NCBI GenBank assembly: GCA_965371755.1
Contig: CBDUZQ010000001.1
Location: forward strand, 1-26,698
Direction: 5' to 3'
Origin: an uncultured bacterium
Lineage (GTDB): Bacteria > Zixibacteria > MSB-5A5 > GN15 > FEB-12
Length of the DNA: 26,698 bases
A model generated the notes under the pieces. That model saw nothing but the letters and a program-made list of their open reading frames with translations. It made no database searches and was not told the DNA's origin. Position numbers and translations under genes: made by a program. Below are positions 10,307-24,569 of the stretch, one piece after another (the first letter of the stretch is position 1; every line of letters starts with the position of its first letter).

Positions 10307-11242
10307 ATGAAACGATCAACATCGACACGCTGGGGATCTCTGAAAGTGGGGGCGGTCTTGACCGCGGCTATCGCGGTAGCCCTGTGGGCGTCGCTCACCG
10401 GCGGCGGCACCTCGATCTTCGACCCTAAGGGCAATTTCGTATGCTACTTTCACAACGTCAACGGGTTGGTCAAAGGTTCGCCGGTCTGGATGTCGGGAGT
10501 TGAGATCGGGAACGTGCGCAGGGTCAAGTTCGTCAACATCGATTCCCTGCGCCAGGTGGAAGTGACCTGTCGCGTCAAGAAGTCGGTTTGGAACATGCTC
10601 ACCGGCGACGCTCGTGTCCAACTTGGGTCTATCGGTTTTCTGGGGGACAAGTATGTCGAGATCGACCCGGGTGGTGCCACTGGAGCGCCAATTGAGGAAG
10701 GAGCTGTCGTACAGACGCGTGACGCCGGCAGCGCGGAGGCAATGTTTCTCGAGGGGGAGCGAGCTCTATCGGAGGCGGGCGACATGGTGCACAACCTCGA
10801 CGAAGTCCTGGCCCGCATGAATCGCGGCGAGGGTACGTTGGGACGCATGGCCACCGATGAGGAACTGTACACCCAGATGACCAACCTGCTGGCCAACCTG
10901 ACGAAGTTGACAGCATCCCTGCAGAAGGGTCAGGAGCGTATCATAACGTCGATCGAGCAGACCTCGGACGCTGTCACCGGTTTGGCTGATCGAGTCGACT
11001 CCAACAGCGGCACACTGGGGCGTCTCATGTCCGACCCGGCGCTGTATGACAATCTAGCGGCCACGTCGGCGCGGTTGGACAGCGTTATGTCGAAGATCAG
11101 CAGGGCTGAGGGGACGCTTGGTTTGTTCGTCTCTGATACCTCTCTCTACACCGAGACGGTGAACCTCATGGCACGCATCAACAACCTCGTCACCGATATC
11201 GAGAACAACCCGAGGAAATATTTCAAGTTCTCGGTGTTTTAG
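10307..11242 (+). CDS. mlaD: MlaD/MCE-domain protein
   Basis: N-terminal TM anchor, NVNGLVKGSPVWMSGVEIGNV, GFLGDKYVEIDPG, three GTLG...D..LY helical repeats, C-terminal DIENNPRKY. Confidence 0.92.
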   Translation: MKRSTSTRWGSLKVGAVLTAAIAVALWASLTGGGTSIFDPKGNFVCYFHNVNGLVKGSPVWMSGVEIGNVRRVKFVNIDSLRQVEVTCRVKKSVWNMLTGDARVQLGSIGFLGDKYVEIDPGGATGAPIEEGAVVQTRDAGSAEAMFLEGERALSEAGDMVHNLDEVLARMNRGEGTLGRMATDEELYTQMTNLLANLTKLTASLQKGQERIITSIEQTSDAVTGLADRVDSNSGTLGRLMSDPALYDNLAATSARLDSVMSKISRAEGTLGLFVSDTSLYTETVNLMARINNLVTDIENNPRKYFKFSVF

Positions 11243-11250
11243 GGGGAGTT

Positions 11251-11940
11251 GTGGCTCACGTCAGCAAAAGGAAGGCTCTGAAAGAGCTTCAGTGCAATCT
11301 GGATCGTGGTGAAAAGATCATAGCCACTGAGGAGGGCACTGATGCAATTATCCGGTGGCGGCGAGATACAGAAGTACTTATGAGGGAAGTCCTGTCCGAG
11401 AATAGCGAGTTATACAAGGGTTTTCACGAAATCGCATCTTTCACGTCGCTGACGATGGTGAAGCAGGGTGTTTATCTCCTGGGAGAGTCTATACAGCAGA
11501 TCGAAGAATACGGGTTGATCTCGGAAAGGACGCAGGTACACCGACTATGGCGCCAGTTGGGAATCCAGTTCGCCGTGGTAGTTGTCACAGTAGTTGCCAC
11601 AGTAGTTGCCACCTTGTTTTTGCCACCTGTTCAACGTTTGCTTGGCATTACTCTTGGAAGCAACAGTGAGTTGACAGAAGCACAGCGAGAGATGAAGTGT
11701 AAAGAGCTACAGGTTCTGTTTGATAATAGGTTAGAGGAGTTCGATGCCGATTCTTGGGCTAGCAGAGATTCTCTCAAGACATGGCTTGCAGCTAATTTCT
11801 CCGGACGAATACCCGAGATCAGATGGAAGAAACGGGCGTTCGCACAGCGGATAACTATGCGCAGGAAGAACATCGTTGATTCGTTTATGGTGGCCTTTCA
11901 GACCTACGGTTGTGATACCACATCTCTTCGCAACCGGTGA
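11251..11940 (+). CDS. Hypothetical single-TM membrane protein
   Basis: 229-aa ORF with GTG behind a ggggag RBS, 8 bp after the mlaD stop. Central hydrophobic helix. Composition looks more AT-rich than its neighbours. No family recognised. Confidence 0.6.
   Translation: MAHVSKRKALKELQCNLDRGEKIIATEEGTDAIIRWRRDTEVLMREVLSENSELYKGFHEIASFTSLTMVKQGVYLLGESIQQIEEYGLISERTQVHRLWRQLGIQFAVVVVTVVATVVATLFLPPVQRLLGITLGSNSELTEAQREMKCKELQVLFDNRLEEFDADSWASRDSLKTWLAANFSGRIPEIRWKKRAFAQRITMRRKNIVDSFMVAFQTYGCDTTSLRNR
11578..11613 (+). repeat. 12-bp tandem repeat x3 inside the hypothetical gene
   Basis: gtagttgtcaca / gtagttgccaca / gtagttgccacc, encoding VVVT-VVAT-VVAT in the TM helix. Confidence 0.8.
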
Positions 11941-11970
11941 ACGGCCTTGCTGCGAACAAAAACTATTGCT

Positions 11971-12192
11971 GCGTCATACTGAGCGGAGTCGAAGTATGAC
12001 GTTTTTCCTGCGACAAGTACGCCGCCCTTCGACTCCGCTCAGGGTGACGTTTGGGATGCGCTCAGGGTGACGTTTGGGATGCGCTCAGGGTGACGTTTAG
12101 ATGCGCTCAGGGTGACGTTTTGGTGGGCTCAGGGTGACGTTTGGATGCGCTCAGGGTGACGTTTGGATGCGTTCAGTATGACGTTTTGGTGG
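11971..12192. repeat. Repeat cassette A: inverted REP-like doublet plus 7-unit tandem array
   Basis: cgtcatact-gagcggagtcga-agtatgacg (11972-12001), inverted copy cgccgccct-tcgactccgctc-agggtgacg (12020-12049), and tandem units gctcagggtgacgttt(N6-7) at 12037, 12060, 12083, 12105, 12127, 12149 and 12171 (last one degenerate). Confidence 0.95.
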
Positions 12193-12277
12193 GCATCTGA
12201 CCGTACTGCATGAGCCGCCTTCACTGCTTCTGTAACGCCAATCAGATACTATCAGGAACTTGATCGTCCGCGCGGTA

Positions 12278-12586
12278 CTATTCGTTCTGCTTACCGTGAG
12301 AGGTTTCATTCCGGCACTTGGCGAGTTCGTGCAGTAGATCAAAATCCCCGGCAACGAGAGCAGACTTCTTGCTCCGAGACCAGCCTTTGATCCTGCGCTC
12401 TGCTGCAACTGCTTCTTCTGCTTCCGCAAACTCCTGACAGAATACCAAGTGGACCGGTCGACGCGATGCGGTGTACCCTCCAAACGAGCCTTGTTCGTGC
12501 TGTGCAAGCCTCGTTTCCAGATCGCTTGTACTTCCGGCGTAGTAGCTACCGTCCGCGCAGTGAAGTATGTACACGCAATATGCCAT
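12278..12586 (-). CDS. Small stand-alone GIY-YIG nuclease (UPF0213/YhbQ/SLX1-like)
   Basis: CVYILHCADGSYYAGSTSDLETRLAQH, GGYTASRRPV, AERRIKGWSRSKK. The Tyr/Gly/Arg/His/Glu core is intact. Confidence 0.93.
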   Translation of the reverse strand: MAYCVYILHCADGSYYAGSTSDLETRLAQHEQGSFGGYTASRRPVHLVFCQEFAEAEEAVAAERRIKGWSRSKKSALVAGDFDLLHELAKCRNETSHGKQNE

Positions 12587-12622
12587 GTCTATCCGTTTTA
12601 GATTCTCGCTAGACCTACCTAA

Positions 12623-12768
12623 GCGTCATGCTGAGCGAAGTCGAAGTATGGCGCTTTTTCTACGATAACTATGCCGCCCTTCGACTCCGCTCAGGGTGAC
12701 GTTTGGAAGCGCTCAGGGTGGCGTTGGGATGCGCTCAGGGTGACGTTTGGATGGGCTCACGGTGACAT

Positions 12769-12770
<2 letters not shown>
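12623..12770. repeat. Repeat cassette B: inverted REP-like doublet plus 3-4 unit tandem array
   Basis: The 66-bp head 12623-12688 aligns ungapped to 11971-12036 (57/66 identical by hand count). Units at 12689, 12711, 12733 and a partial unit at 12755 that abuts the pcrA stop codon. Confidence 0.95.
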
Positions 12771-14964
<2,194 letters not shown>

Positions 14965-15034
14965 CACAGTGGGGTTGAATATACACGCGTTCGGGCGTTT
15001 GGCAATGACATAGCTGGAAGTTTCCGCCGGAAAC

Positions 15035-24149: not shown

Positions 24150-24569
24150 TCACCCCACGTGCGTTGGTTCGCGAGTGTCGATCTGGTCGGAGGTGGGAAG
24201 AGGGCCGGATGATCCACCGCTGAAAGCCATCACGCCGATAGCCACGAAATTCAAGAACGGCAGCAGCATCAGGACACCCCAAATGCCGGAATGCCCGGCC
24301 GCTTTTGCTACTTCAACCCACAAAAGAGCCCAGGCGGCCAGGGAGATGATCGGGATGAAGCAAAGCAGAGCCCAAAACCACGCCTTACCTGCCATCCTAG
24401 TCAGCAGGAACAGGTTCATGATTGGGATCCATGACCACCATGCCTGGTCGGCACAGCCAACCTTCTGAGCGATCTTATACTGGGCGTAGGCGAAGTAGCA
24501 GTAGATGGCCAGGATAGCCAACACCGCGGCTATACTTATTCCACCGCCGTCATAGCCAGGTTCGTACAT
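24150..24569 (-). CDS. Small integral membrane protein (DUF5684-like)
   Basis: RBS aggagg. KIAQKVG...AWWSWIPIMNLF...AGK, with repeated IP..N motifs at helix boundaries. Confidence 0.75.
   Translation of the reverse strand: MYEPGYDGGGISIAAVLAILAIYCYFAYAQYKIAQKVGCADQAWWSWIPIMNLFLLTRMAGKAWFWALLCFIPIISLAAWALLWVEVAKAAGHSGIWGVLMLLPFLNFVAIGVMAFSGGSSGPLPTSDQIDTREPTHVG

Follow-up and report, generated by a model that had tools for sequence, protein, structure and literature searches.

A small GIY-YIG nuclease gene and its flanking tagged hairpins: a probable Ssn-type cassette on a sister enzyme branch

The DNA analysed here, a stretch of 26,698 nt that we call the window, is contig C1 (CBDUZQ010000001.1) of a 442-contig, 2.69-Mb metagenome-assembled genome (G000; assembly GCA_965371755.1) from an uncultured bacterium of the Zixibacteria. 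Its region 11971-12770 holds a small gene for a GIY-YIG nuclease surrounded by repeated hairpins, an arrangement that an earlier, sequence-only reading had likened to repetitive extragenic palindromes (REPs), their inverted doublets (REPINs) and the REP-associated tyrosine transposases (RAYTs) whose genes they flank. We describe the anatomy of this locus, the relationship of the nuclease to known proteins, and the distribution of the hairpins within the genome and among related genomes.

The locus and its repeat modules

Two convergent genes enclose the region. On the left lies an open reading frame (ORF) of 229 amino acids (aa) to which no function was assigned (11251-11940, forward strand), and on the right lies pcrA/uvrD (12769-14967, reverse strand), whose stop codon occupies positions 12769-12771. 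The locus had been described earlier as an mlaD-pcrA junction, which holds for its right side; on the left, the 229-aa ORF follows mlaD and intervenes. The nuclease gene itself (12278-12586, reverse strand) is intact, encodes 102 aa, and stands between two copies of a repeat module, one downstream in the sense of the gene (module 1, 11971-12054) and one upstream (module 2, 12623-12706), each with hairpin units on both strands. Aligned as a direct repeat of 84 nt, the modules are identical at 75 positions (89%), and all nine mismatches lie in the first 52 nt; the 57 identities in 66 positions counted previously are therefore correct, and the repeat extends further than that count.

Each module contains two hairpin units in inverted orientation, as had been claimed from the letters alone. 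In module 1 the units span 11972-12003 and approximately 12020-12049, with arms (11972-11994 and 12027-12049) that are 91% complementary. In module 2 they span approximately 12624-12655, with the CGTC tag on the forward strand, and approximately 12672-12701, with the tag on the reverse strand; the arms here (12621-12646 and 12679-12704) are 85% complementary. A unit consists, in order, of the CGTC tag, a short stem, a conserved 12-nt loop GAGCGnAGTCGA (GAGCGrAGTCGA) and the return stem. Its core, CTGAGCGNAGTCGAAG, occurs in four copies at the locus, compared with 0.12 chance matches expected in the window, and a fifth match, with two mismatches, lies at 24480. For either strand of single-stranded DNA, the best fold of a module is one long hairpin of the REPIN kind (-24 to -27 kcal/mol, z -4.4 to -6.1). 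Module 1 accounts for the stronger values (-26 to -27 kcal/mol, z about -6) and module 2 for the weaker ones (z -4.4 to -5.0, -24 to -25 kcal/mol).

Both modules run into an array of 22-nt half-hairpins on the tag side of one of their units. A half-hairpin comprises the tag, the 5' stem and the start of the loop (CGTCACCCTGAGCG plus about 8 nt on the reverse strand). Tandem Repeats Finder delimited 6.8 copies at 12036-12186 (reverse strand, 91% matches), on the tag (5') side of the hairpin at approximately 12020-12049, and 3.6 copies of period 22 at 12688-12766 (reverse strand, 87% matches). Taken as a whole, the first array spans 12036-12194. The second array reaches pcrA, with its last degenerate unit touching the stop codon, and the earlier description of a unit that lies between convergent genes and ends on the right at the pcrA stop codon agrees with the sequence and its ORFs.

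The sequence-only reading had further pointed to three substitutions inside a stem that all preserve pairing on the forward strand, and had taken them as a sign of selection on single-stranded structure. The substitutions do preserve this pairing. Genome-wide, however, the stems contained 138 G.T pairs and 121 A.C mismatches, with no clear excess of G.T, so the argument for folding of the forward strand only hangs on three substitutions, and we dropped strand-specific folding as evidence.

Searches for other features of the region returned little. An Rfam scan of 11000-13500 at E values up to 10 gave just two chance microRNA-like matches, and this interval therefore holds no known RNA family; NCBIfam had no model matching either the nuclease or its 229-aa neighbour. 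Within the 229-aa ORF, a 12-nt tandem repeat, GTAGTTGCCACA (2.9 copies, 11578-11612), encodes a VVATVVAT stretch in a hydrophobic segment.

The nuclease and its association with the hairpins

The 102-aa protein carries a single GIY-YIG domain at residues 3-74 (Pfam PF01541, E=2e-17, 63.7 bits against a cut-off of 22.6). Residues Y6, Y16, G18, R26, H30 and E63, among them the tyrosines of the GIY and YIG motifs and the catalytic Arg, His and Glu, are invariant among 16 homologs. An AlphaFold model with a predicted local distance difference test score (pLDDT) of 83.8 has a beta-beta-alpha-beta-alpha order (strands 3-9 and 15-20, helix 23-32, strand 46-53, helix 56-67) plus two C-terminal helices, and its best Foldseek matches were 1ZG2, 1YWL, Slx1 and UvrC. 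The nearest solved structures by phmmer were the UPF0213 proteins 1ZG2 (E=4.8e-14) and 1YWL (E=1.4e-11), which are thus the best matches in both sequence and fold, share the size and active-site residues of the window protein, and have neither a function nor a repeat partner reported in the literature that we searched. Only two GIY-YIG matches were found in the assembly, the window gene and a 663-aa open frame on contig C56, taken as UvrC, leaving the window gene as the sole small GIY-YIG gene of the assembly. Comparison with the nuclease gene of the related genome G006 revealed 18 synonymous and 2 non-synonymous codon differences, indicating that the gene is under purifying selection.

SsnA of Neisseria meningitidis, which belongs to CDD family cd10448, is of similar build, with 94 aa and one GIY-YIG domain (Chenal et al. 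2025, Nat Commun 16:2388, PMC11893778), and the window protein is of the size that characterises the Ssn family (a single GIY-YIG domain, about 94 aa). Its sequence places it closest to the UPF0213 (YhbQ/BH0048-like) proteins. An Ssn-type protein from the same bacterial order matched 1ZG2 and 1YWL only at E=2e-3 and 0.24, and a protein of the transfer RNA (tRNA)-linked clade described below matched 1ZG2 at E=2e-18. The window protein is 33% identical to one Ssn-type protein flanked by NTS, the hairpin repeat of that system (single-pair E=9e-15). Used as proxies, a protein tree and this pairwise comparison point away from cd10448 and, with the structure matches, suggest that it belongs to a UPF0213-like sister branch of Ssn.

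The association between gene and hairpin was examined in 116 genomes of the same order that were at least 90% complete, 87 of which hold small GIY-YIG genes. A contig scan with the single window protein returned only the near-identical copy of G006, and the homologs were taken from wider genome searches. For the proximity test we used one locus from each of 60 other genomes and counted as a hairpin any GAGC-N2-4-G(T)CGA enclosed by a stem of 4 bp or more. Hairpin density was 1.99/kb within 150 bp of the gene and 0.02/kb beyond 1 kb. Measured against a non-coding proxy of 0.12/kb, this represents an approximately 15-fold enrichment near the gene, with a Fisher p of 3e-17 that is nominal because hairpins cluster and the counts are not independent. 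A hairpin lay within 300 bp at 20 of the 60 loci. The remaining loci were not bare, most of them belonging to a second protein clade, whose genes have inverted TGTCATTCCCGCGAAAGCGGGAATCCAG units on either side.

In a tree built from 80 small GIY-YIG proteins of related genomes, each of three clades goes with one of three flanking hairpin types, and the flank-type labels require 2 changes, the minimum, compared with 19-25 in shuffles. Within the window clade, a GAGC..GTCGA hairpin lies within 250 bp of the gene in 21 of 22 members, the exception being situated at a contig start, and the clade is separated from the NTS-flanked proteins with a Shimodaira-Hasegawa-like approximate likelihood ratio test (SH-aLRT) value of 98. 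G053 and G081 share the arrangement seen in the window, with one doublet on each side of the gene; at other loci of the clade an inverted pair brackets the gene, with the tags pointing outward. An enrichment of the repeat in the flanks of homologs, which had been proposed as a check on the sequence-only reading, is borne out by these data. Tree and proximity test led us to reject a coincidence within a repeat hot spot, and the conclusion that nuclease and hairpins belong together is strongly supported.

The second clade can be equated with the published Ssn system, since the published SRM pattern, which recognised NTS as a positive control, matches 17 of 21 of its flanks. In the assembly G000 this pattern had 37 matches, compared with 20-28 in shuffles. 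At the Ssn-type loci L082, L110 and L112, the NTS-like repeats carry arrays of half-units on the tag side (GGAATGACA... or TGTCATCCCC...), so polar half-unit arrays are common to both repeat types. The third clade lies directly behind a tRNA gene, presumably tRNA-Ser as read by eye, with CCCTGAGCGAAGCGAAGGG-type hairpins upstream (L009-L013, L030, L059, L063, L072, L073, L083 and L090). Downstream lies a conserved element of about 85 nt whose last part duplicates the 3' end of the tRNA, and the arrangement looks like a cassette inserted at the tail of the tRNA gene.

Proteins 56-70% identical to the window nuclease also occur in Alphaproteobacteria and Cloacimonetes. The homologs from Novosphingobium, Parerythrobacter and Cloacimonetes (56-62% identity) have CCTGAGCYTGTCGAAGG-type hairpins on both sides (3 of the 4 loci fetched), and the Zavarzinia homolog (67% identity) has an expanded-loop hairpin variant, upstream only. 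All four loci are in unrelated gene neighbourhoods, the Zavarzinia gene lying between two carboxylase genes and the Cloacimonetes gene between two FtsX-type permease genes. These loci bear on the explanation that the protein is a general structure-specific repair nuclease (SLX1/YhbQ-like) acting on any hairpin or cruciform, and that the repeats merely accumulated at a variable spot. Its fold and sequence, nearest to UPF0213 and Slx1, would suit such an enzyme, and the region downstream of pcrA is a repeat sink in relatives, as shown below for G002 and G004. Even so, the near-perfect match between protein clade and repeat type, the adjacency of gene and hairpin at many unrelated locations and in several phyla, and the enrichment over the non-coding background make this explanation very improbable. 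SLX1-like cutting of cruciforms, which the sequence-only reading had in mind, is likewise less likely than binding of the hairpin in single-stranded DNA, as measured for SsnA.

The dispersed repeat family and the pcrA junction

A search of the whole assembly for the core CTGAGCGNAGTCGAAG, allowing up to one mismatch, yielded 117 copies, many of them close to the ends of contigs and interspersed with repeats of other classes, which confirms that the modules belong to a dispersed family. The GIY-YIG locus is the densest hairpin cluster in the assembly, with 16 units/kb compared with 7 at the next best. Elsewhere, hairpin units are scattered as singles, as inverted REPIN-like pairs, or together with half-unit arrays. 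Their stems, mostly 4-10 bp around the invariant 12-nt loop GAGCGnAGTCGA, co-vary (CCCT/AGGG 42, TGCT/AGCA 16, TCCT/AGGA 13), and the tags CGTC (32), CCTC (26) and TGTC (24) together account for 82 of the 117 copies. Half-units were present on the tag side at 28 of the 117 hairpins (37 units), compared with 5 on the opposite side; their commonest spacing is 22 nt, and they break off mid-loop. In ten of the 117 cases, a GTAG-type REP start (GTAGGTY) precedes the copy by no more than 45 nt, and most of the ten copies are nested in the loop of that REP. Composite nested repeats of this kind recur in GTAGGTCGAAACC...GGTTTCGAC or GTAGGTCAGGAGC...GCTCCTGAC REP loops on contigs C6, C12, C20, C56, C111, C370, C396 and others.

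A link of the hairpin to a RAYT or IS200/IS605 gene elsewhere in the genome would have offered a different partner, and this was checked for the HUH/Y1 genes. The assembly contains two Y1/HUH (PF01797) matches. The gene at C70:100-1200 is bracketed by two copies of a different repeat of about 60 nt ending in CCCACAGCAAGCTGTGGGCCACC, and the one at C324:2950-3274, at a contig end, is preceded by a GTAG-tagged hairpin (GTAGGTCAGGAGC...GCTCCTGAC). Both carry other repeats, which rules out the hairpin as a RAYT-linked repeat and indicates that classical RAYT/REP systems coexist with the GIY-YIG/hairpin system in this genome.

Among related genomes, members of the window clade were identified with a clade-specific profile, and the resulting co-occurrence statistics are nominal in that they ignore shared ancestry. 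Genomes with a member of the window clade (n=19) held a median of 45 repeat copies and a minimum of 8, compared with a median of 6 in genomes of the same family that have no clade member (n=57). Some genomes carry two copies of the window clade. In G004, a genome of the same genus in 40 contigs, the small GIY-YIG genes are of the Ssn/NTS type.

One explanation of these distributions is that the nuclease acts as an analogue of RAYT, actively making and dispersing the gene-less repeats by cutting at hairpins, with host repair or replication completing the process. It accommodates a single-copy gene flanked by its own repeats amid some 117 dispersed gene-less copies, the constant presence of repeats in genomes with a clade member, and the difference in array length between close relatives. 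The excess of half-units on the tag side and their break in mid-loop would fit repeated processing at one place. Nevertheless, we consider a RAYT-like role of this kind unlikely. GIY-YIG enzymes hydrolyse DNA with no covalent intermediate, and strand transfer by such a hydrolytic enzyme alone is impossible. Twelve of the 26 genomes with at least 30 repeat copies do not have the gene, including the richest, G004 (358 copies, 99% complete), and replication slippage induced by the hairpin could build the arrays without any nuclease. The Ssn paper, too, offers the spreading of repeats by the enzyme as a hypothesis only (PMC11893778).

Comparison of the pcrA junction among relatives revealed how the cassette itself varies. 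G006 has a nuclease 98% identical to that of the window in the same cassette, with just one half-unit beside pcrA where the window has 3.6 copies, so the copy number of the array varies. In G008, whose PcrA is 97% identical, pcrA is followed by a hairpin with its spacer, one half-unit, a full doublet and then the same 229-aa gene; the nuclease gene is absent. A deletion running from the tag of the hairpin nearest the gene to that of a downstream half-unit would leave this layout, which fits equally well the state before an insertion just 5' of a tag; either way, the presence/absence polymorphism is bounded by tags. The junction of G008, with repeats and no gene, is an empty site of the sort that the sequence-only reading had suggested looking for, and it supports the idea that the gene may be lost or gained by way of the direct repeats. 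G002, of the same genus (L034, contig C87), has at this junction a RAYT-like HUH gene (...MPEHVHLL...) with its own hairpins of the CCGAGTCTGAAGACTCGG type, and G004 has a mosaic of repeats. The convergent gap at the 3' end of pcrA is a recurrent landing site for repeat-associated genes. When clean insertion sites were sought in the orthologous intergenic blocks of G000 versus G002, G006 and G008, no target-site signature was readable, because these blocks are too diverged or reshuffled.

The polymorphism raises the possibility, if a doubtful one, of a selfish homing-type cassette that cuts the abundant hairpins and is copied into the breaks by repair, with the repeats serving both as landing pads and as the homologous sequence; on this view the repeats existed beforehand and spread by other means. 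The close homologs with the same hairpins in the unrelated neighbourhoods of Zavarzinia and Cloacimonetes would be expected of such an element, their identity across phyla suggests horizontal transfer, and both the tag-bounded polymorphism and the two clade copies in some genomes are consistent with mobility. Yet the gene usually occurs once per genome, although more than 100 sites would be available for landing, and its position is shared by G000 and G006, where purifying selection on it is strong, as would suit a function that has been kept; the target-site signature that homing could have left is not readable in the diverged blocks.

Proposed action and comparison with known systems

Taken together, these observations make it probable that the locus is an Ssn-type cassette, composed of a nuclease and its cognate hairpins, built on a sister enzyme branch. 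The flanking units would be the DNA sites of the nuclease, each made up of a tag (CGTC, TGTC or CCTC), a stem of variable sequence whose arms co-vary, and the conserved 12-nt loop. If the enzyme behaves like SsnA, it may bind the hairpin in DNA that has become single-stranded, as in replication, repair or DNA uptake, take its orientation from the tag, and nick the DNA a short way off, on the tag side. The gene together with its hairpins would be gained or lost as a unit at the tags, as suggested by the repeats-only junction in a close relative and by the unrelated neighbourhoods in other phyla, and a part in generating new repeat copies is conceivable. The sequence-only reading had cast the GIY-YIG protein as the enzyme that cuts these hairpins and spreads the repeats, the gene, or both; the link between gene and hairpin stands, and the spreading of repeats is a less likely proposal, weakened by repeat-rich relatives that have no copy of the gene.

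Several observations weigh against the cassette as we propose it. Besides G004, repeat-rich genomes without the gene include G048 (136 copies), G082 (71) and G016 (59), and the co-occurrence figures do not factor in shared ancestry. The ten GTAG-associated copies could travel with that other repeat class. The SRM pattern had 0 matches in the window and matched 1 of 14 flanks of the window clade and 0 of 6 flanks of the third clade. Since the protein is much nearer to the UPF0213 structures than Ssn-type proteins are, its activity could differ from that of SsnA, and the activity of the whole branch is argued by analogy.

The GAGC..GTCGA hairpin is widespread: Alphaproteobacteria and Cloacimonetes have it as well as this uncultured lineage. 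In the literature that we searched, no partner enzyme was found assigned to it. If its partner is a UPF0213-like nuclease, the 2025 Ssn finding would reach a second protein family, and the UPF0213 proteins, to which BH0048 and EF2693 are related, would acquire a function open to testing. The set of single-stranded DNA cutters that the Ssn authors put forward as tools (PMC11893778) would also gain new sequence specificities. For annotation, such a partnership would account for small GIY-YIG genes that often lie at contig ends and in repeat-rich gaps. A bolder version, which we regard as a long shot, is that the UPF0213-like branch forms another family of single-stranded DNA nucleases specific for hairpins, the second after Ssn, with the 12-nt loop and tag as its code, that the tag-side arrays are footprints of repeated cutting and repair, and that the enzyme spreads the repeats much as RAYT does, with a GIY-YIG domain in place of the transposase. 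Such spreading has its best hint in the polar half-unit arrays, which slippage at the hairpin explains equally well.

Three known systems resemble the locus. Like the superfamily of CGTC-tagged REPs, for which no dedicated transposase is stated to exist (Di Nocera, De Gregorio and Rocco 2013, BMC Genomics 14:522, PMC3733652), the repeats described here have a one-sided CGTC tag with TGTC and CCTC variants, a stem that begins with A, frequent inverted dimers, a location between convergent genes and no linked transposase. The CGTC-tagged REPs have stems of 8-9 bp, loops of 4-5 nt and a CCA tail, whereas the invariant 12-nt loop is the most conserved part here and polar half-unit arrays are common. 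With REP/REPIN-RAYT systems (PMC3116915, PMC3337134) the locus shares a single-copy enzyme gene flanked by its own repeats, many gene-less copies, inverted doublets that fold into a long hairpin, and an enzyme that is sometimes lost while the repeats persist. The enzyme there is an HUH tyrosine transposase and the tag GTAG, in contrast to a hydrolytic GIY-YIG protein and a CGTC-like tag.

The Ssn/NTS system comes closest. SsnA binds the NTS hairpin CGTCATTCCCGCGMAVGCGGGAATCYRG as single-stranded DNA only, on one strand only, and its cut site lies just upstream of the hairpin; such a motif is found near 71% of ssn homolog genes, and Chenal et al. liken the NTS-ssnA-NTS arrangement to insertion sequence (IS) elements and to RAYT/REP (PMC11893778). 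In both systems the GIY-YIG protein stands alone and has about 95-100 aa. They also share flanking oriented hairpins with an HGTC tag, tens to hundreds of gene-less copies, a pairing of enzyme branch with repeat variant, and an IS- or RAYT-REP-like architecture, and true Ssn-type genes with NTS-like repeats are present in the same bacterial order. They differ in that the window protein falls in a separate clade nearer to UPF0213 (E=5e-14, compared with 2e-3 for the Ssn type), and in that its hairpin has a conserved 12-nt loop, as opposed to one of 4-5 nt, and lies outside the SRM pattern; nuclease activity has been measured for SsnA and is predicted for the window branch. UPF0213, cd10456 and the GAGC..GTCGA hairpin go unmentioned in the Ssn paper (PMC11893778). 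The general idea of a nuclease with tagged flanking hairpins, comparable to RAYT/REP, is thus already published as Ssn/NTS; what appears to be new here is a sister enzyme branch and a hairpin type that the published SRM pattern misses.

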